A stretch of 64,000 nucleotides of DNA from assembly GCA_038897215.1 (NCBI GenBank), contig JAWAWX010000001.1, positions 320,001-384,000 on the forward strand. The letters are read 5' to 3'. Shown here in pieces: positions 25,415 to 35,561 of the stretch. Below the pieces are notes generated by a model. The model saw only the letters and a list, made by a program, of their open reading frames with translations, made no database searches and was not told the DNA's origin. Position 1 is the stretch's first letter, and each line of letters starts with the position of its first letter. Position numbers and translations under genes: made by a program. This DNA is from Acidilobaceae archaeon. GTDB taxonomy: Archaea > Thermoproteota > Thermoprotei_A > Sulfolobales > Acidilobaceae.

Positions 25415-25554
25415 TTATCCGATAACGATATGGAGACACAACGACTATAGCATACTTGTAGTTATTGCCTGGCTCTCGGCAATAGTCTAAGCCTACATTC
25501 GGCTAGAATTTTTTAAGTGGGTCTTTAGTGGTATCCCTTTCTCGGAGACTGCTT

Positions 25555-25941
25555 GTGACGAGTTTTCTAGAGTTGCTATCGAGAGACGTGGTCTCTCTCG
25601 TAGTAGCCCCCCTCATGCTCACAGCCTTCTTGGGAGCTCTCGTGCTCGCGTTAGCGCTCCTCTCGAGGAGGCCGGGGAGCTCTCTAGTCTCAGCTGAGAG
25701 GTACGAGGCAGGTAATCCTCCATGGGGCTCTGCTAGAAGGCCTCTCGAGATGCAGTACGTAGCCTACCTGGTGCTCTTCGCTACCATCGAGCCGGTCTTG
25801 GTCGTAACGGGCTTTCTAGCGCTTGCTGGACTCATTGCCGCTCCTCTCTTCATCGCCTTCCTACTCCTTCTCTCGATACCAGTCTTAGTGTATGGAGCCT
25901 ACGAGGCTAGAAGAGTCTCTGTGGAGGTTGCTCAGCAGTGA
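25555..25941 (+). CDS. nuoA: Complex I-like subunit A
   Basis: Three TM helices, RYEAGNPP loop, LFATIE; TATA at ~25510 favours GTG 25555 over 25528. Confidence 0.85.
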   Translation: MTSFLELLSRDVVSLVVAPLMLTAFLGALVLALALLSRRPGSSLVSAERYEAGNPPWGSARRPLEMQYVAYLVLFATIEPVLVVTGFLALAGLIAAPLFIAFLLLLSIPVLVYGAYEARRVSVEVAQQ

Positions 25942-26489
25942 TCTACGTTGGAGTTCTTGAAGCAGCTTATCGGAGAGCTCTCGAGATCCTCTCCGGCAAG
26001 CTGAGAATCGGCCAGGTAGCCGACTGGTTCACAGCCTACAGTCTCTGGCCAGTGCACCTGGTTACGGGCTGTTGTGGAGCCGAGTTCGCTGCAGCCTACG
26101 GCCCTCTGGTTGACTGCGAGCAGTACGGCTCCCTGCCCTGGGTGTCCCCCAGGCAGACTAACTTGATAGTGATAGAGGGGACTGTCACCAGGAAGATGGC
26201 GTGCGCACTCAAGATCACATACGAGCAGATGCCCCCGCCTAAGTACGTGATAGCCATGGGGGCGTGCGCTATAGACTACGGGGTCTTCAGAGGCAGCTAC
26301 AACATGGTGAAGCCCTGGGAGGTAGTCCCCGTAGACATCTTCGTGCCAGGATGCCCGCCTACGCCCGAAGCTCTCGCTAGAGCCATAGTGGAGCTACAGA
26401 GGAAGATAAAGAGGGGGGAGGTCGCGGCGAAGACGGGAGCGCTACTGAGTGAAGCTAAGGCAGACCCGTGCAGATGGTGGTCTCCCTGA
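25938..26489 (+). CDS. nuoB: Complex I-like subunit B
   Basis: TGCCGAE, SPRQ, MGACA, VPGCPP (N2 cluster ligands). Confidence 0.95.
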   Translation: MIYVGVLEAAYRRALEILSGKLRIGQVADWFTAYSLWPVHLVTGCCGAEFAAAYGPLVDCEQYGSLPWVSPRQTNLIVIEGTVTRKMACALKITYEQMPPPKYVIAMGACAIDYGVFRGSYNMVKPWEVVPVDIFVPGCPPTPEALARAIVELQRKIKRGEVAAKTGALLSEAKADPCRWWSP

Positions 26490-26929
26490 GCGAGCGCGCG
26501 AGGATAGTCGAGGAAGCTCTGAAGAGAGCCGGGCTTAGAGTAGCGAGGCACGTAGGCGTGCTGGAGGTCGAGGTCGACAAGAGCAGGATCGTCGAGGCGG
26601 CTCTCGCGCTCAGAGAGCTAGGGTTCGACCACGTTAAGGCAGTAGTGGCTGTCGACGAGCCTGAGAACGAGAGGATCAGAGTCTCCTACGTGGTCTCCAG
26701 CTTCGACGAGAGCGAGACGCTCGTGGCTCTAACCGTAGACGTCTCTCGCAGCGACCCCCGCCTCGAGAGCCTTACTCGAGTCTGGCCGAGCACGGAGCTC
26801 CAGGAGAGAGAGGTTTACGAGCTCTTCGGAGTCGTCTTCGAGAACCACCCAGACCTCAGGCCTGTACTCCTAGACCCCGAGCTGGCTGAGAAGAAGGTGA
26901 TGAGGAGGGACTTCAGGATTGAGTGGTGA
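26468..26929 (+). CDS. nuoC: Complex I-like subunit C
   Basis: EREVYELFGVVFENHPDLR. Confidence 0.92.
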   Translation: MQMVVSLSERARIVEEALKRAGLRVARHVGVLEVEVDKSRIVEAALALRELGFDHVKAVVAVDEPENERIRVSYVVSSFDESETLVALTVDVSRSDPRLESLTRVWPSTELQEREVYELFGVVFENHPDLRPVLLDPELAEKKVMRRDFRIEW

Positions 26930-28136
26930 GCAAGCAAGCGCTGGAGTGTTTAGAGCTAGGAGGGTTAGCGGAGACCTCTACGATATATTCGTGGGGCCCC
27001 AGCACCCCGGCTCTGGCCACATGAGGCTCAGAGTGAGGCTCGATGGAGACGTGATAGCTGAGGTAGACCCGGATGCTGGCTACGTCCACAGAGGGGTAGA
27101 GAAGCTAGCGGAGACCAGAGAGTGGCTGAAGAACATTCCTCTCTTCGAGCGCGTGAACATAATAGATGCTTGCAACATAACGCTACCCTACGTGAGAGCG
27201 ATAGAGGCTCTATCGGGGCTAACGGTGACCACTAAGGCTAGCGTTCTCAGAACAGCTCTCTGCGAGATAAACAGGATCGCTTCTCACCTCTACGGCTTCA
27301 GCATACTCGGAGTCTTCATAGGCCACTCGACCATGTACATGTGGTGCATGGCTGATAGAGAGGTCTTCGTCAAGCTAGCCGAGATCCTAACGGGCGCCAG
27401 GCTAACGCACACCTACGCTATCCCAGGAGGCGTTAGGAGAGACGCTCCGAGAAGCTTCTCCGAACTCCTGAGGAAGGCAGCGCGCTTCATGAGGAGGAGG
27501 CTTAGAGAGTACGACTCGTTCTTCTTGAAGAACCCCGTGGTTAGAAGCAGGCTTGAGAACGTTGGAGCAATATCGAGGAAGACCGCTGTAGAGCTAGGGC
27601 TCACAGGCCCCAATCTGAGAGGTAGCGGGGTAGCCTACGACGTCAGGCAACGCGAGCCCTACGAGGCGTACGGAGACCTAGACTTCGAGATCCCGGTGGC
27701 GAACGAGGGAGACGCTCTAGCCAGGACGTATGTGAGAGTGCACGAAATAGAGCAGAGTCTACTCATCCTCGAGCAGATAGCCTCAATGCTGGAGAAGCTC
27801 GACAAAGAGCCGGTGATCCCCGAGAAGACGCTGGAGAAGCTACCGAAGCTCTACAGAGAGGTCTACGAGCAGAAGGGCGTAGTCAAGCTTCTCCCGACGA
27901 TGGTCACCATGCGAGTCCCCCCGGGGAGAGCTGTGTCGAGAGCTGAGGCTGCTAGAGGAGAAGTCCTCTACTATGTGGAGAGCAGAGGCGGAGACAAGCC
28001 CTACAGGGTTAGGCTCGTGACCCCCTCCTTCAGGAACCTGGCCGCATTGAAGTATGCCGCGCCCGGGCACAAGCTGATGGACCTTCCAGCGATCTACGCG
28101 AGTCTAGACTACTTCCCGCCTGAGGCTGATAGGTGA
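26919..28136 (+). CDS. nuoD: Complex I-like subunit D (quinone-binding, no NiFe Cys motifs)
   Basis: GPQHPG..GH, GYVHRGVEK, GPNLRGSG, C-terminal DYFPPEADR. Confidence 0.95.
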   Translation: MSGEQASAGVFRARRVSGDLYDIFVGPQHPGSGHMRLRVRLDGDVIAEVDPDAGYVHRGVEKLAETREWLKNIPLFERVNIIDACNITLPYVRAIEALSGLTVTTKASVLRTALCEINRIASHLYGFSILGVFIGHSTMYMWCMADREVFVKLAEILTGARLTHTYAIPGGVRRDAPRSFSELLRKAARFMRRRLREYDSFFLKNPVVRSRLENVGAISRKTAVELGLTGPNLRGSGVAYDVRQREPYEAYGDLDFEIPVANEGDALARTYVRVHEIEQSLLILEQIASMLEKLDKEPVIPEKTLEKLPKLYREVYEQKGVVKLLPTMVTMRVPPGRAVSRAEAARGEVLYYVESRGGDKPYRVRLVTPSFRNLAALKYAAPGHKLMDLPAIYASLDYFPPEADR

Positions 28137-29152
28137 TGAGCGAGCTAGCTGGAGCTCTCTGGAACGTCGTCGTGGTGGGCTTGCTCGGCTCAGCCGTCTT
28201 CTCAGCTATAGCAGTGTGGTTCGAGAGGAAGGCGACTGCTAGAGTGCAGAGGAGGATAGGGCCTCTGTGGGTGAGCGCTCGAGCTGGAGGCATTCTCCAG
28301 CCGCTCGCCGACCTAATCAGGCTGGCTAGGCAGCCCCCCGTGCTCCCCCGGGAGGCTCACAAGCCGGTTCTCGTCATGCTCACTGTCCTGGCTTTCGTGG
28401 CTTCTCTAGCGCCCGTCTTCGTATTGCCTATGACGAGCGTTGAGAGGTACGCTCCTCTGAGTAGCACTAGCTACACTCTCTTCCTGGCTCTCGCGATAGC
28501 CGTTCTCGCCTCTCTACCGATAGTGTTCATGGGGTGGGCTAGCGGGAACAAGTTCGCTGTGATCGGTAGCCTGAGAGAGTCCTACATACTCATAACGTAC
28601 GAGGTCGTGATGCTAGCCTCTATAGTCTCCGCTGTAGTGCTAGCCGGTACTCTCGACGTAGTGGAGATCGTCGAGTTCCAGAAGCAGCATCTCTGGATAG
28701 CTCTAATGAATCCGCTGAGCCTAGCGGCTCTAGTGCTCGCCATGTTTTTAGCCTCGTCCTCTTTCCCCTTCGAGATCGCTGAATCCGAGACAGACGTGGT
28801 CGCAGGACCCTACACTGAGCTCAGCGGCGTCCTCTACGCTCTATCCATGGCTAGCGTCTACGTGAAGCGCTACGCTTACTCCGTGATAGCGTCGATAGTC
28901 TTTCTGGGAGGCTGGGACCCCATTGAGCCGAGCGGAGGTCTAGCCATGTCTCTAGCCGCTCCAACTCTAGTCGTTCTATTCAAGGCCCTTCTCGTGATGC
29001 TATTCGCTAGCACCACTAGAGCAGTATACGGGAGACTGAGGCTAGACCAGGCTCTAGACGTGGCTTGGAGAGTCGGAGTCCCTCTAGCGGTAGCCGCGAT
29101 AGCCTGGTCCGCTGTTCTCAGAGCTCTCTTGATGGTGACAGGCTATGGCTAG
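28133..29152 (+). CDS. nuoH: Complex I-like subunit H
   Basis: ERK..ARVQRRIGP, QPLAD, YEV, PFEIAESET...GPYTE. Confidence 0.94.
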   Translation: MMSELAGALWNVVVVGLLGSAVFSAIAVWFERKATARVQRRIGPLWVSARAGGILQPLADLIRLARQPPVLPREAHKPVLVMLTVLAFVASLAPVFVLPMTSVERYAPLSSTSYTLFLALAIAVLASLPIVFMGWASGNKFAVIGSLRESYILITYEVVMLASIVSAVVLAGTLDVVEIVEFQKQHLWIALMNPLSLAALVLAMFLASSSFPFEIAESETDVVAGPYTELSGVLYALSMASVYVKRYAYSVIASIVFLGGWDPIEPSGGLAMSLAAPTLVVLFKALLVMLFASTTRAVYGRLRLDQALDVAWRVGVPLAVAAIAWSAVLRALLMVTGYG

Positions 29153-29651
29153 AACTAGATTGGTAGAAGCGGGTAGGCAGAGCTACTGGAGTAGCCTAGT
29201 CTACTCGCTGAGAGTCCTAGCTGAGGGAGTCAAGTACATGATCCGCCCCCGGAGGAGGTTCACGATCCTCTATCCCAGAGAGCGAGTCGCTCACGAAGAG
29301 GGTTTCAGAGGGTACATAGAGCTGAGCCTACCCAAATGCATCGGGTGCAGGAGCTGCGAGAGAGTGTGCCCGGCTAGAGCGATTGAGATGGTAGCAGTGG
29401 CTTCTCAAGAGGCTCGGTCTAAGCTAGCTCCTCGCTTCAACTATCAGAGGTGCATATTCTGCGGCTTCTGCGTCGACGTGTGTCCCACCAACGCTCTCTC
29501 CCACATAGAGAGCCTAGACCAGGTGTACGAGAGACTCGAAGACATGGCCGTCGAGCCGGGAGAGCCCCCGACCCGCTTGCCCGAGGAGGGAGAGCCCCGC
29601 GCTCACGTGATCGATGAGGAAGAGGGTCTGGTCAAGGTGAGGGAGAGATGA
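29145..29651 (+). CDS. nuoI: Complex I-like subunit I (2x[4Fe-4S])
   Basis: YP.E...FRG, CIGCRSCERVCP, CIFCGFCVDVCP. Confidence 0.95.
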   Translation: MARTRLVEAGRQSYWSSLVYSLRVLAEGVKYMIRPRRRFTILYPRERVAHEEGFRGYIELSLPKCIGCRSCERVCPARAIEMVAVASQEARSKLAPRFNYQRCIFCGFCVDVCPTNALSHIESLDQVYERLEDMAVEPGEPPTRLPEEGEPRAHVIDEEEGLVKVRER

Positions 29652-30130
29652 GTCTGCTCTTGGTCGCTGTGATTGCCGCGATAGCTCTAGGGGTAGCTGC
29701 TGTAGCTCTGAGAGACCTAGTGTACTCGAGCCTCTCCCTAGCCGTCTTGGGGATAGCTACAGCCTCTCTTCTCGCTCTCTCGGGCTACTTGCTGCCAGCG
29801 ATCCTAGTCATCCTGGTCTACGTGGGGTCAGCAGTGATGCTCCTAGTGGTCTCAGTCTCCATGATCGGAGGGGTCGAGAGCGAGCCCAAGAGTAGCGCTC
29901 GGGGAGCTATAGCCGGCGTTGCAGCGTTCTCGCTCGCGCTACTACTCTACGTGGAGTCGAGAGGGTATATTGCTGAGAAAGCGCTCGAGCACCCATACGT
30001 CAGCATAGAGGCCGTGGCCAGCACTCTAGTCGAAGAATACCCTCTAGCGCTGGCCCTGATAGTGCTGTCTCTGCTAGCGACAGCCATCGAGGGCCTCTTG
30101 CTCCTGAGAGTCTGGGGTGCTAGAAGGTGA
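29648..30130 (+). CDS. nuoJ: Complex I-like subunit J
   Basis: Five TM helices, ILVYVGS motif, operon position. Confidence 0.85.
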   Translation: MSLLLVAVIAAIALGVAAVALRDLVYSSLSLAVLGIATASLLALSGYLLPAILVILVYVGSAVMLLVVSVSMIGGVESEPKSSARGAIAGVAAFSLALLLYVESRGYIAEKALEHPYVSIEAVASTLVEEYPLALALIVLSLLATAIEGLLLLRVWGARR

Positions 30131-30414
30131 TCAGCGACGTCTTGGCGGTAGCGGGTTGCGCTCTACTAGGCTTAGGGGTATACGGTCTCGTGAGCTCGAG
30201 TAATCTAGTCAAGCAACTGATCTCCATCGAGGTAGCGTTCAACGGAGCCATAGTCATGGTCGCCGCTCTGCTAGTAGCTAGCCCCGAATTCGCCACACTA
30301 CTGTTAGTCTTGCTGGCGGCTATCGCTACTAACGAGACGATAATGCTCATAGTGTTGATCCTAGCCTACTACAGGAGAGAACGTAGTCTAGCTTCGAGGG
30401 GTGTGGAGGCGTGA
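30127..30414 (+). CDS. nuoK: Complex I-like subunit K
   Basis: Three TM helices, LISIEV..N, AA..E. Confidence 0.85.
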   Translation: MISDVLAVAGCALLGLGVYGLVSSSNLVKQLISIEVAFNGAIVMVAALLVASPEFATLLLVLLAAIATNETIMLIVLILAYYRRERSLASRGVEA

Positions 30415-31979
30415 GCGAGGAGGTAGTCCTGGGGGCTCCCATACTCTGGCTCTCTATACTAACGCCACCACTACTAGCCGCCTTAGCCGGAGCTCTGGGC
30501 TTCAGGAGCGTCTGGCACGTGAGGCTGGTAGCCTACGCGTCGGCCGCTCTCTTCTCTCTCCCAGCCGCCGCTACTCTCTGGTATCTCTACGTGAGCGGGC
30601 ACAGAGCTCTAAGAGACCCTCTCTACGTAGACCTGAGGAGCCAGGGCTTCGGAGCCCTCGGGCTCGCTGTAGACCACTTCTCTGCTCCCGTGGTCATAGG
30701 AGTCTCTCTAGTCACGTCTCTCGTCTCGATATACAGCATCAAGTACATGGAGCACAGGATCGCCGAGATGGAGAAAGAGGGCGTTCACGCTCCGTCGCTC
30801 ACCGCTTACTACATCATGTACCTGTTGTTCTCCTCATCCATGCTCGGTGTAGCGATGTCGACGAACATGATCGAACTCTACGTATTCCTAGAGCTCTCCC
30901 TGATCTCGTCTTTCCTGCTAATAGCCTTATACGGCTACGGCGACAGGTTCTTCGTAGCGCTACTCTACTTCGTCTGGACTCACGTGAGTAGCATGCTGAT
31001 ACTACTCGGGGTCCTCTACTTCGGCTTGAAGGCGGGCTCCTTCGATATACTTGATATCTCGAGTCTCTCCTACGTAGCCGCCTACTCCAGCGTAGAACTC
31101 AAGGGTCTATCTACTCTCATCCCAATCCTCATGACTCTCGGCTTGCTCATAAAGCTTGCCGCCTTCGGCGTCCACGTGTGGCTCCCCTACGCTCACGCAG
31201 AGGCCCCCACGCCCGTCTCAGCGCTACTCTCACCGAACATGGTCGGGCTCGCTGGCTATCTCATAGCTAGACTTGGCTTCGTTCTCTTCGGTAACATCAT
31301 GACTCTCTTGAGCACTCCTCTCATAGTCCTTGCTCTCGTCAGCATAGTCTTCGGCGGTCTCCTAGCCGTGAGAGAGAATGATATAAAGAGGCTTCTAGCC
31401 TACTCTAGCGTGAGCCAGATGGGCTACATACTCTTAGGCATAGCCGCGCTCTCTAGCTACGGCTTGGCTGGAGCGATGCTACACTATCTCGCTCACGCTG
31501 TGGGCAAAGCGATACTATTCATGGTAGCAGGAGTCTTCATAATGGAGCTAGAGGGGCTGAGGAGTGTAGAGAAAGCCGGAGGGCTAGCGAAAGTCTACCC
31601 AGTGACTTCGGGATTAGCTGTCTACGGGTTCATGCATCTCATGGGAATGCCTCCCGCTATGGGTCTTTGGAGCAAGATCTTGATATTCTTCGGTCTCGTC
31701 GAGACATACCTAGCTACTCCACTAGCGCTCGCAGCGATAGCCGTCGCAGCAACCTTCTGCTTCCTAGCCACAGTCTTTTACGTGACGACGGCGCTTTCGA
31801 AGATATTCTTCGGTGAGACTCGAGGGGAGTGGAGCGTTAAAGAGGAGTTCGACGAGCCTAAGGCTACTATACTCGTTCTAGGGGTGACGGGGCTACTGTT
31901 GTTCATGTTGACTGTAGCGATCGCAGGACCTCTTCTCGAAGCCTCTGCTGAGCTCCTAAAAGCCGGGGGTGCTCCGTGA
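30411..31979 (+). CDS. nuoM: Complex I-like antiporter subunit M
   Basis: YVFLE, IKLAAFGVHVWLPYAHAEAPTPVSALL, KRLLAYSSVSQMG. Confidence 0.93.
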   Translation: MSEEVVLGAPILWLSILTPPLLAALAGALGFRSVWHVRLVAYASAALFSLPAAATLWYLYVSGHRALRDPLYVDLRSQGFGALGLAVDHFSAPVVIGVSLVTSLVSIYSIKYMEHRIAEMEKEGVHAPSLTAYYIMYLLFSSSMLGVAMSTNMIELYVFLELSLISSFLLIALYGYGDRFFVALLYFVWTHVSSMLILLGVLYFGLKAGSFDILDISSLSYVAAYSSVELKGLSTLIPILMTLGLLIKLAAFGVHVWLPYAHAEAPTPVSALLSPNMVGLAGYLIARLGFVLFGNIMTLLSTPLIVLALVSIVFGGLLAVRENDIKRLLAYSSVSQMGYILLGIAALSSYGLAGAMLHYLAHAVGKAILFMVAGVFIMELEGLRSVEKAGGLAKVYPVTSGLAVYGFMHLMGMPPAMGLWSKILIFFGLVETYLATPLALAAIAVAATFCFLATVFYVTTALSKIFFGETRGEWSVKEEFDEPKATILVLGVTGLLLFMLTVAIAGPLLEASAELLKAGGAP

Positions 31980-34204
31980 TAGAGGCCGCGTTAGCAACAC
32001 ACGTAGCGTGGGCAGCGCCTCTAGCGGGCTCGCTGCTAGCCTTCCTCGGAATGCTCTTGAGGGTGAGGAGCGAGCTCTACTACTCGCTCGTCGCTTCTCT
32101 CAGCATCCTAGTGTCAGCTATCGCCACCTCGTGGCTAGCCTGGCTGGTGCTAGCTGAGGAGGCGCCCCTCCTCGTGCCCGGACCTTTGATCCTCGAGAGC
32201 CCCAGAGTCTCTCTAGACGTGAGAGCAGACGGGGTCTCCGTAGTCGTGGCTCTTGTAGCTTCCTGGATAGGCTTCATCATATCGGTCTACAGCAGAGAGT
32301 ACATGAGGGGAGACGAGGGCTACGGGAGATTCTTCGCTCTGCTATCTCTCTTCGTTGGCGGCATGATGCTCCTAGCCTTGGCCGACAGCCTTGTAGTCAT
32401 GTTCGCTGGCTGGGAGGCCACGGGTCTCTGTAGCTATGCTCTGATAAGCCACTGGTACGAGAACCCTCCCGATAAGTGGGTCGGGAGGCCGGGCAGGTAC
32501 AGGCTCGGCTTCCCTATGTTCTTCCCGCCGACCGAGAGCGGGACTAGGGCTCTCGCGTTCACCATGATTGGAGACGCGTGGCTCCTAGCGGGGATAGCTA
32601 CTCTGATTCGCTACACGGGGACGAGTAGCTTGACGGAGCTAGCGGCCAGCGCTGGGGTCTGGATGCTTGAGCTCTCGGGGAGCGGAGCGCTAGCCGTCAT
32701 AGCGGCATCCATGACTATAGGAGCTCTGGCTAAGAGTGCTCAGATACCATTCCACGAGTGGCTCCTCACAGCTATGACTGCCCCGACTCCAGTCTCTGCT
32801 CTGATACACGCTGCCACAATGGTTAACGCTGGAGTCTACCTGTTCCTCAGGATAGCTGGCTTCACTCTCGAGGCTGTGGCGGCGAGCGCTGAGCCTCCAG
32901 CTCTCCTAGCTAGCGTTCTAGTCCCCGTGTACGCTGGCGTGCTCGCAGTAGGCCTAGCCACGTCTCTCCTCACCTCTCTCATCGCTCTCAACTCTGACGA
33001 GCTGAAGGTGGTTCTGGCAGCATCTACCTCGAGCCAGCTGGGGCTCATGTTCGCCTCCGCTAGCGCTAGCGGGCTGCTAGCTCTGTGGGGCCGCAGCGGG
33101 GAAGCGCTAGTGGCTTTCTACGCTACCCTACTCCATCTGCTGAGCCATGCTGTCTTCAAGGCAGCGCTCTTCCTAGCCGCTGGCTGGGTCATACACGCCT
33201 CTCACACTAGATTCATCGAGGGGATGAGGGGAGCTCTGCGCGAGGCTAGAGCAGCAGCGTTGGCGATGACGCTGGGGAGCCTGAGCCTAGCCGGGATCCC
33301 CCCGACTCTGGGGTTCTTCAGTAAAGACCTCGTGCTCCACTCTCTAGCCTGGAGTAGCCCAGCTCTAGCCCCCGTGGGGCTCGCTCTAGCCGTCCTCACT
33401 GCTCTCTACGCTGGGAAGACTCTGGGCGCGCTTCTCGGAAGCCGGGAGAGAGAGGCGCTAGAGGAGAACGGCCACAGCGGAGAGCCTCCAGCTATGAGCA
33501 CAGCCTACCTGTCTCTAGCGCTGGCATCGCTAGCTCTGGGGCTCTCGTGGCCCGCGTCAAGCAAGCTTGTAGCGAGAGCTGTCGAAGCCTCTCTCTCAGC
33601 CCCTCTGCCGGAGATCCACCTGAGCCTAGGCGCCGCCGCTCTAGCGAGCGTTGCGAGCCTCTCTGCTCTCGCCATCGCCATTGTCTACGGCTATCGGGGG
33701 GCTAGAGTGACCAGCTGGCTGGCCTCATCGAGTGTTTTCAAGGCTCTAAGCGAGATAGCCTATGATAGGTTCTTGATGAGCCCAGTTCTCTACGCTCTAG
33801 CTAGAGCCATGGGAACTCTTGGAGAGTTTGTTGCGAGGACTGTGCATAACTTTGCAGAATGCGCGACCATAGCGTTTATCGATGGTTTCGCGAGCGATAT
33901 CAGAGCGAGACCGTCTACCCGCGAGCTAGAGCATAGAGCTTGGCTGTCTGCTTATTGCTCGATAGATAGGCTCACCTGCAATCTCTGCTCTAGAGTCATA
34001 TCGTATTTAGCGAATTCAACTGTAGACACTGATCAAGCACTAGACAACCTATATCATAGAAGAGTAACGTCCACTGTCAGAACTCTCGGCAATAGAGTAA
34101 GACTCGTTCTTCGAGGAAGCGGCTCTCAGTACTTTGTTTTAGCATACATACTGTCAGTGCTCGCTGTAGCAATAGTCTTGCTAGCCATACTTTTAGGTAT
34201 GTAG
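31976..34204 (+). CDS. nuoL: Complex I-like antiporter subunit L with extended C-terminal helix
   Basis: YSREYM, GWE, KSAQIPFHEWL..AMTAPTPVSALIHAATMVNAG, HAVFKA, terminal TM helix. Confidence 0.93.
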   Translation: MIEAALATHVAWAAPLAGSLLAFLGMLLRVRSELYYSLVASLSILVSAIATSWLAWLVLAEEAPLLVPGPLILESPRVSLDVRADGVSVVVALVASWIGFIISVYSREYMRGDEGYGRFFALLSLFVGGMMLLALADSLVVMFAGWEATGLCSYALISHWYENPPDKWVGRPGRYRLGFPMFFPPTESGTRALAFTMIGDAWLLAGIATLIRYTGTSSLTELAASAGVWMLELSGSGALAVIAASMTIGALAKSAQIPFHEWLLTAMTAPTPVSALIHAATMVNAGVYLFLRIAGFTLEAVAASAEPPALLASVLVPVYAGVLAVGLATSLLTSLIALNSDELKVVLAASTSSQLGLMFASASASGLLALWGRSGEALVAFYATLLHLLSHAVFKAALFLAAGWVIHASHTRFIEGMRGALREARAAALAMTLGSLSLAGIPPTLGFFSKDLVLHSLAWSSPALAPVGLALAVLTALYAGKTLGALLGSREREALEENGHSGEPPAMSTAYLSLALASLALGLSWPASSKLVARAVEASLSAPLPEIHLSLGAAALASVASLSALAIAIVYGYRGARVTSWLASSSVFKALSEIAYDRFLMSPVLYALARAMGTLGEFVARTVHNFAECATIAFIDGFASDIRARPSTRELEHRAWLSAYCSIDRLTCNLCSRVISYLANSTVDTDQALDNLYHRRVTSTVRTLGNRVRLVLRGSGSQYFVLAYILSVLAVAIVLLAILLGM

Positions 34205-34214
34205 AGGGAGCTCT

Positions 34215-35561
34215 ATGAACACTGCTTTAACGGCAATAGTCTTTTTAGCATTATACTCTAATGCTGTAGCCTCTCTAGCGATACCTCTCTTGAGCCTAGC
34301 CAATAGCAGGTCTAAAGCTATCTGGCTCTCATCGCTAGCACCTCAAGTAGCAACACTGACCGCTCTAGCCGTAGTGCTGGCTACAGGAGCTAATCCCGCT
34401 TCGGGCTTCCTCAGCTCGGAGAAAGCCTCTTGGATACTAGCTGCATCTGCTACTCTAGGCTGTCTGCTGTCATCTCTAGCTATAGGTGTGTCTGCATACG
34501 ATTGGCTCACGCACCCTGGTGTTTACAGCTTAGTGCCTCTCGCTCTGCTAGGGCTCGTCCACTTATCTCTAAGCGGCGACCTCCTCGTAGCGTTAGCCGC
34601 GTGGCTTTTGGTAGCCATATCAAGTTACGCTCTGGTAGCTCTAGCCGGAGACAGGTCTAGCGTGAGAGCAGCTGTCATCTACGGAGTCGTCGGCATGATC
34701 TCGACGCTACTCCTGATCCTGGGCGTGGCTCTAGGCTCGGCTGCTCTTGAAGCCGGGAGAGAGCTCTTATCGCTCTCAGCGTCCACTATGATCTTAGCAT
34801 CTCTAGGGCTCAAGCTGGGGCTCTTTCCGTTCCACTGGTGGATTCCGGCTGTCTACGGGGGAGCCAACGGGAGGCTCGTGGCTGTTCTCGACGGCTCCTA
34901 CAAGCCTGCTTTCGCCGCTGCTCTGCTCTACCTCCTCTCCGAGGTAGCCGGGCCCGTCGCGCAACAGGTCTCTCTGGCTCTCCTCCTGCTAGGCTTGGCT
35001 AGCATGACCTACGGTAACGTCGCAGCTATGGTGACCGGTAGACTTCAAGAACTCCTAGCTTATAGTAGTATAGCTCACGCCGGCTTCATAGGAATCGCTA
35101 TAAGCATAGCTCTAGCTCCAGAGACCACTAGAAGCTACGAACTCGCCATAGCGGGCTTGCTTCTAGTAGCTCTAACTGTGGCTTCAGCAAAGCCCCCTCT
35201 CTTCGCTCTATCCTCTCTAGTCAGAGATGTTGGCGACCTGGAGAAGATCTCCTGGGATAGAGCTTCGAGCACGTCTATAGCAGTGCTTTCTCTAAGCCTG
35301 CTAGGCGTGCCTCCACTCTTGGGATTCTGGGGTAAGCTAGTGATAGCAATAGCCGTAGCTGAAGTGTCACCTCTAGTAGCGGCGATAGTTCTAGTCAACG
35401 TTACCGCTAGCTCTGTCTACTATCTGAGAGTAGTCGTCTCAGCTCTTAGGAGGAGCGGTGAGCGCCTAGAGCTAGACAGAGCTGTGAGAGCCACGCTCAT
35501 TGCCTCAACAGCGATCAACTCGTTGGGATTGATAGTAGCCGCTACTATTTACAGTCTCTAA
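34215..35561 (+). CDS. nuoN: Complex I-like antiporter subunit N
   Basis: LKLGLFPFHWWIP.VY, LLAYSSIAHAG, SLLGVPPLLGFWGK. Confidence 0.9.
   Translation: MNTALTAIVFLALYSNAVASLAIPLLSLANSRSKAIWLSSLAPQVATLTALAVVLATGANPASGFLSSEKASWILAASATLGCLLSSLAIGVSAYDWLTHPGVYSLVPLALLGLVHLSLSGDLLVALAAWLLVAISSYALVALAGDRSSVRAAVIYGVVGMISTLLLILGVALGSAALEAGRELLSLSASTMILASLGLKLGLFPFHWWIPAVYGGANGRLVAVLDGSYKPAFAAALLYLLSEVAGPVAQQVSLALLLLGLASMTYGNVAAMVTGRLQELLAYSSIAHAGFIGIAISIALAPETTRSYELAIAGLLLVALTVASAKPPLFALSSLVRDVGDLEKISWDRASSTSIAVLSLSLLGVPPLLGFWGKLVIAIAVAEVSPLVAAIVLVNVTASSVYYLRVVVSALRRSGERLELDRAVRATLIASTAINSLGLIVAATIYSL

Follow-up and report, generated by a model that had tools for sequence, protein, structure and literature searches.

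Published work takes the length of the lateral helix of NuoL (HL, here called the strap) as a sequence hallmark of complex I enzymes with extra proton pumps and hence a higher H+/e- ratio. In the 2M complex I (Chadwick et al. 2018, as summarized in PMC9040806), the strap is lengthened by multiples of ~26–27 residues, which that summary gives as proposed to accommodate extra pumps, and the second M is the product of a separate gene. A 26-amino acid (aa) insertion has been reported from clusters that lack an extra NuoM as well, where readiness for extra pumps or an evolutionary transition was proposed, and the only published proposal of a five-pump arm, Complex_I_3 of Candidatus Manganitrophaceae, has its extra pumps encoded in the cluster (PMC9040806). 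Here we describe the nuoL gene (31976..34204; 742 aa) of an Acidilobaceae archaeon, within a 64-kb window (G000:C1:320001-384000) of a 1.16-Mb genome (G000) assembled as a single contig; the window is the whole stretch of DNA that was analyzed, coordinates without a prefix refer to it, and all window features named below lie on its + strand. With this gene, the Acidilobaceae join the Thermofilaceae as archaea in which the pump genes of the operon would call for a strap about two units shorter.

The protein is a divergent archaeal form of the NuoL family. It scores 45.4 bits against PF00662 (cut-off 24.5) and 152.1 bits against PF00361 (cut-off 21.5), and the top NCBIfam matches of the open reading frame (ORF) are NuoL models at scores under the curated bacterial cut-offs (319.1 against 556 for NF005141 and 294.1 against 407.5 for TIGR01974). 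An AlphaFold2 model with a mean predicted local distance difference test score (pLDDT) of 85 was aligned by VIA-align to E. coli NuoL (3rko_B) with a Z score of 45.9 and a root mean square deviation of 2.3 Å over 551 residues. The channel residues E147 (the Glu of transmembrane helix 5, TM5), K253 (TM7 Lys), H278 (TM8 His), and K395 (TM12 Lys) are invariant or nearly so among 86 homologues. The likeness to canonical NuoL/Nqo12/ND5 (E. coli 3rko and 7z7r; T. thermophilus 4he8) lies in the fold over residues 4–622, in these channel residues, and in the C-terminal layout, in which TM15 (residues 552–574) leads through a helical linker (577–711) to TM16 (717–741); the gene also stands in an operon with NuoH, J, K, M, and N.

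Length and distribution of the NuoL strap

The linker between TM15 and TM16 (residues 576–719, 33701..34132), which is the lateral helix region, is ~140 residues long. It is preceded by TM15 (33629..33697; an AlphaFold2 helix at pLDDT ~90 that coincides with a hydropathy segment at residues 547–573) and closed by the membrane anchor TM16 (34124..34198; an AlphaFold2 helix with 59% identity to the congener). By hydropathy and AlphaFold2, the same spacing in other Acidilobaceae NuoLs is 75–80 residues. Alignment with MAFFT places the excess at ~62 residues, both over the rest of the family and over canonical NuoL, and at 71 residues in the congener; the segment without counterpart in other Acidilobaceae NuoLs falls at about residues 613–683 (33812..34024, ~62 aa extra), although the position of the gap within the strap is arbitrary.

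Strap length was measured as the number of residues between two invariant anchors, R598 of the YDR motif at the strap start and G714 just before TM16. The protein described here has 116 such residues and that of the congener (P0002) 125, against 55–56 in canonical NuoL. Among the matches listed, a sample of 78 diverse bacterial and archaeal NuoLs, mostly bacterial, has distances of 54–56 in 63 cases and 80–84 in 13, with none at 110, 116, or 125; the other two lack the anchor residues. The 120 closest homologues, taken as a second sample, divide into 102 at 54–56, 14 at 80–84, two at 110 (P0075 and P0085), the 116 described here, and the 125 of the congener. Strap lengths are therefore quantised in steps of ~27 residues, and the straps of this genus are the longest seen across the two samples.

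Among 31 related genomes, the same-genus genome G001 alone matches through the strap. In all 17 other genomes of the family the NuoL match ends where the strap begins, and every one of these NuoLs that was aligned shows the base length of 54 without the insert. The insert is confined to one genus within the family, and the expansion is therefore a derived trait of that genus. We found no account of this insert in the literature on Thermoproteota.

By length the strap falls into the "+2 unit" class, which it exceeds by six residues here and by 15 in the congener. This class has an anchor distance of ~110 with three marks of a hydrophobic residue followed by Asp (hD) 27 residues apart; here the distance is 116, and the marks (FIDG, D636; SIDR, D664; ALDN, D690) are spaced by 28 and 26 residues. 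Their offsets from the Arg anchor are 38, 66, and 92, compared with 32, 59, and 86 in the clean +2-unit straps of P0075 and P0085, which is the clean register with six residues added ahead of the first mark. A chain of three [IL]D motifs at spacings of 25–29 arises in 0.06% of 20,000 shuffles, a figure that is inflated because the motif was picked after the fact. An initial annotation of this DNA had noted the ~140 residues between the last two TM helices, the recurring (I/L)D motif at these spacings, and a single nuoM, all of which we find as it described (the last for the operon, by ORF map and Pfam); its description of the strap as extended by about two ~27-aa units is a fair reading of an excess close to two units with hD marks in the clean +2 register.

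Outside the hD dipeptide, the insert shows no similarity to the unit. A hidden Markov model (HMM) of the conserved D..YH unit yields only 4-residue matches within the insert, at scores reached by 331 of 500 shuffles, and in the congener strap the hD chain is absent and the unit HMM finds no match. No donor sequence or internal repeat was detected by tblastn of the insert against the genome or by blastp of strap pieces against NuoL, and a search with residues 585–742 alone returned only the query itself. These results weigh against a firm reading as unit duplication; an origin of the insert by two such duplications followed by fast divergence is plausible.

The clean +2-unit straps of the Thermofilaceae (P0075, P0085, and genome G324) resemble the present one in length class (109–110 versus 116) and in hD register, and the Thermofilaceae +2-unit system shares with the source genome the operon layout A-B-C-D-H-I-J-K-M-L-N with three pumps. 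They differ in that the tandem repeats of the Thermofilaceae straps are obvious and retain the D..YH motif, whereas here units 1 and 2 have lost it, the insert is fast-evolving, and the strap has two predicted helix breaks. The P0075, P0085, and G324 straps are longer by exactly two clean 27-residue D..YH units, and nuoL of G324 (L162:9248-11338) lies in an ordinary operon.

Pump number and predicted structure of the strap

Strap length does not reliably predict pump number. The Thermofilaceae genome G324 (strap 109, 90% complete) holds exactly three PF00361 genes genome-wide, which are NuoL, NuoM, and NuoN, NuoM being split in the assembly, and genome G293 (strap 84, 97% complete) likewise holds exactly three. 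Clear 2M operons surround only three of the 13 sampled +1-unit NuoLs (L133, L060, and L058), and at 9–10 of these 13 loci only L, M, and N lie within the stretch fetched. Because other archaea with long straps hold only three pump genes, a longer strap is by itself no proof of a bigger pump. The initial annotation's inference of extra antiporter modules is not supported by these comparisons, nor by the 26-aa insertions in clusters without extra NuoM (PMC9040806).

The operon described here likewise departs from the 2M type. No extra pump gene lies inside it, either in the source genome or in the congener, where only M, L, and N are present; nuoM is the sole M-type pump gene and its product is ordinary in length and domains, whereas in the 2M enzyme the second M is encoded separately. 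The strap differs as well, since its excess of ~62–71 residues (62 here, 71 in the congener) is not the 25–28 of a single ~26-residue unit, and the added sequence lacks homology to the unit.

The explanation that we prefer, holding about as much belief in it as doubt, is an enzyme with NuoL, NuoM, and NuoN at 1:1:1 and a weakly constrained surplus of strap. The lateral helix of NuoL, the strap that runs from TM15 along the pump subunits to its anchor TM16, is expanded in one genus; the expansion probably arose by unit duplication followed by quick divergence. The enzyme would keep one copy each of NuoL, NuoM, and NuoN, and the extra part of the strap would be folded back at the two predicted breaks or else rest on the membrane surface with no pump beneath it. 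The same may hold for other archaea with straps one or two units longer and genomes with only three pump genes. This explanation starts from the observed length of the strap, its phyletic distribution, the register of its marks, its weak conservation, and the missing link between strap length and pump genes; from these we infer how many copies of each subunit the enzyme has and which path the surplus helix takes.

Conservation is consistent with such a surplus. Identity between the congeners is 21% in the insert (62 residues here, 71 in the congener) as opposed to 61% in the core, and judged by this comparison the insert is weakly constrained. In the last unit of the strap, conservation among the 86 homologues reaches at least 90% at D690, Y693, H694, and R709.

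The strap is predicted to form three amphipathic surface helices of 46, 30, and 28 residues separated by two short breaks. In the AlphaFold2 model, predicted helix A (residues 598–643, 33767..33904) starts at the YDRF motif and holds H624 and the first hD mark (I635–D636), its pLDDT falling from ~90 to ~55. A first predicted break follows at residues 644–649 (RPSTRE, 33905..33922; assigned by DSSP on the model, the congener model breaking at 644–651). Predicted helix B (residues 650–679, 33923..34012; pLDDT 44–56) carries the second mark (I663–D664) together with C661, C668, and C671, and predicted helix C (residues 684–711, 34025..34108) corresponds to the family-conserved last unit, with LDNLYH (D690, Y693, and H694) and R709. 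The model of the congener has helices at 595–643, at 652–683 with one short break, and at 687–717, so that both models break the strap at 644–651 and again at ~680–686, with a strap pLDDT of 39–65.

The hydrophobic moment is 0.42 for helix A (z 2.9 versus shuffles) and 0.42 for helix B (z 2.1), and the helices of this strap are as amphipathic as those of ordinary straps, or more so. The initial annotation took this segment as part of the lateral helix, and its helical, amphipathic, and non-globular character is borne out by these predictions, which break it in two places at low pLDDT. Because both models give three helices at pLDDT 39–65, a fold-back and a straight extension are equally feasible, and a Z-shaped path of A minus B plus C would give a net travel of 46 − 30 + 28 = 44 residues, near the canonical 55, and would place TM16 not far from where it usually lies.

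A separate observation concerns the Thermofilum genomes, in which a pair of pump genes upstream of nuoA was considered as a source of extra complex I subunits and rejected, as it belongs to a second cluster of NuoB/CD/I/H/K type. This second complex I-like cluster lies directly upstream of the main nuoA (L157:2681-10082 in the Thermofilum pendens-like G174; L158 in G114) and encodes NuoB, a fused NuoCD, NuoI, NuoH, NuoK, an L-like subunit of 556 aa, and an M-like subunit of 430 aa.

The orphan antiporter-like pair and alternative explanations

A genome-wide search found eight PF00361 genes, five of them in addition to those for NuoL, NuoM, and NuoN: an Mbx/Mbh-like cluster holds one, an Mrp-like cluster holds two, and the remaining two form an orphan antiporter-like pair. 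The pair (G000:C1:848443-851469; products of 546 and 461 aa) lies outside the window and ~500 kb from the nuo operon, downstream of A-ATPase genes and a flavodiiron gene and with no hydrogenase, Nuo, or Mrp partner gene nearby. The flavodiiron gene directly precedes the pair (L010:6126-10473 = G000:C1:847125-851472), with gaps of 115 bp and 3 bp. Both orphans lack PF00662, and their best family matches are HyfB and HyfD rather than NuoM. Of the 30 relatives, only G001 has the pair, in conserved synteny; a split pseudogene was considered for the second gene in G001 and rejected, the gap being a run of 10 N.

The 546-aa orphan has one close relative among 5.8 billion proteins, that of the congener, and the next hits are bacterial HyfB proteins at ~32% identity; it keeps the channel residues E146, K228, H253, and K358. 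The 461-aa orphan keeps K202 and K321 and has Ala where the TM5 Glu aligns. Its nearest relatives are found in G020 (40% identity), within a Hyc-type cluster, and in G025 (34%), where they head an Mbx-like cluster. The G025 cluster (L055:3288-15354) is orthologous to the source genome's own and has three antiporter-like subunits; the two at its head (490 and 513 aa, 34% identical to the 461-aa orphan) stand beside ferredoxin-like and NuoH-like genes.

A set of observations weighs against the 1:1:1 enzyme with a surplus strap. The path of the strap was judged from the residue ranges aligned by VIA-align. With the cores superposed, the model tracks the E. coli strap to residue 622 (2.3 Å) and loosely to ~650–664, so that helix A and part of helix B follow the canonical path (model pLDDT 41–61 there), and TM16 never superposes on TM16 of any solved NuoL. 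Were the helices colinear, their 104 residues would span ~156 Å compared with ~82 Å normally, an excess of about two pump widths. The quantised strap lengths across bacteria and archaea also suggest that each unit matches something as wide as a pump. Finally, neither orphan has a lateral helix of its own, and their genus-only distribution matches that of the insert; the pair also has no redox module of its own, because the genome holds only two NuoD/NuoH-type modules (two NuoD-type genes and two NuoH-type genes).

One rival explanation is a five-pump arm, in which the orphan pair would sit beneath the two extra strap units, between NuoL and NuoN, and would give a higher H+/e- ratio in a ferredoxin-fed enzyme. 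The pair and the strap insert are co-distributed, occurring in the source genome and G001 only among the 31 genomes and each with one close relative among the 5.8 billion proteins. Together with the retained synteny and channel residues, the missing lateral helices, the shortage of modules for the pair, and an extra strap of about two pump widths, this speaks for such an arm, which has a precedent in the Manganitrophaceae complex I (PMC9040806). Two additional pump subunits of the Complex_I_3 type are, however, absent from the operon here, whereas those of Complex_I_3 are encoded in-cluster; what the genome offers is a distant, co-distributed pair of Hyf type whose relatives belong to hydrogenase-type clusters.

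The co-distribution itself amounts to one evolutionary event in two species. The relatives of the pair in the Hyc-type cluster of G020 and the Mbx-like cluster of G025 occur in genomes with no NuoL match at the threshold used, the best family matches are HyfB and HyfD without PF00662, and the genes lie ~500 kb from the nuo operon next to the flavodiiron gene. The 461-aa protein has Ala at the TM5 Glu position, and G324 and G293 have long straps without any spare pump gene. The suggestion in the initial annotation that paralogues elsewhere could supply extra pumps thus stands insofar as a genus-specific pair exists, and is weakened by relatives that lie in Hyc- and Mbx-like hydrogenase-type clusters and not in nuo operons.

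On balance we regard a five-pump arm as unlikely, and the same doubt applies to the scenario behind it, that the genus lengthened the NuoL strap by two units and recruited two strap-less Hyf-type subunits, leftovers of a lost hydrogenase-type complex, into a five-pump, ferredoxin-fed complex I. If true, it would give archaea their first five-pump arm, and no earlier such arm would have its extra pumps encoded outside the operon. The genus is a useful test case, as it presents a strap-less orphan pair as a concrete candidate beneath the surplus strap. Even if the five-pump reading is wrong, the locus is a warning against inferring pump stoichiometry from NuoL length.

Repeated use of the single NuoM, two or three times over (L:M:N 1:3:1) with one more copy per extra strap unit, would explain both the quantised strap lengths and the long straps in the three-pump genomes G324 and G293. 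We nevertheless consider it distinctly improbable. To our knowledge, no solved structure of complex I, Mrp, MBH, or MBS has the same pump polypeptide at more than one non-equivalent position, which counts against such an arrangement. The NuoM encoded here is ordinary in length and domains, and the 2M enzymes known so far have their own gene for the second M (PMC9040806).

The 1:1:1 enzyme with its surplus strap has also to be set against a globular or metal-binding Cys domain that would loop out on the cytoplasmic face. As initially annotated, the insert segment holds four Cys (629, 661, 668, and 671) of the five in NuoL, and C668 and C671 form a CxxC motif. None of the four is kept in the congener, whose strap has no CxxC, and a Cys-metal domain is unlikely because the Cys are not conserved. 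Both AlphaFold2 models, moreover, contain helices only and no compact domain, and these helices are amphipathic like those of a normal strap. Taken together, these data make a Cys domain very improbable.

Base composition offers one further handle on the insert. The GC content at third codon positions (GC3) is 0.47 in the insert and 0.68 in the core, in line with the initial remark that this segment is AT-richer than the rest of nuoL. The difference is not specific to the insert, however, as low GC3 extends to the conserved last unit and TM16 (0.31–0.41) and to the first 100 codons of nuoN (0.41). Low GC3 does not mark the insert as foreign, because it also covers ancestral sequence and the start of nuoN. 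Along 33700–34500, GC3 drops from ~0.68 to 0.31–0.47, a fall that spans the final 170 codons of nuoL and the opening 100 of nuoN. In a sister species, independent assemblies contain five 747-aa NuoL variants with the architecture seen here, which differ at four variable sites, too few for judging selection.

That the insert is an artefact of assembly error, frameshift, or mistranslated or foreign DNA, as the low regional GC3 and the want of any match beyond the congener might be taken to suggest, is hardly credible, given an open frame that closes with the conserved last unit and TM16, the five variants of like architecture from independent sister-species assemblies, and a low GC3 that spans ancestral sequence into nuoN.

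The operon and other features of the locus

The ORF map and Pfam matches define an 11-gene complex I operon at 25528–35561 with the order nuoA-B-C-D-H-I-J-K-M-L-N. The upstream part comprises nuoA, B, C, D, H, I, J, and K (25528..30414), each identified on the ORF map by its Pfam match. It is followed by nuoM (30411..31979; 522 aa, PF00361 at 200 bits together with PF00662, top NCBIfam model TIGR01972 NDH_I_M), by nuoL, identified by PF00662, PF00361, and its fold match to E. coli NuoL, and by nuoN as the final gene (34215..35561; 448 aa, PF00361, top NCBIfam match the NuoN model NF004445).

In contrast to canonical complex I, the operon lacks nuoE, nuoF, and nuoG and has the gene order K-M-L-N. 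Searches with NuoF (PF01512) and NuoE (PF01257) gave zero matches across the whole 1.16-Mb genome, and because no match to either family was found, the electron-input module is missing. Ferredoxin may serve as the electron donor of this NuoEFG-less complex I. The order nuoK-M-L-N (30127–35561), which differs from the bacterial K-L-M-N, is common to all Thermoproteota operons examined.

A further difference from canonical NuoL lies between the two Pfam domains, where a loop of ~20 residues (about residues 160–187, window 32450–32540) is present that is absent from Thermus and E. coli NuoL. The loop is nearly invariant across Thermoproteota, with the consensus W.VG.PGR..LG.PM.F.PS.SG, and short strands are predicted within it; over residues 151–200, the NuoLs of the congeners are 92% identical.

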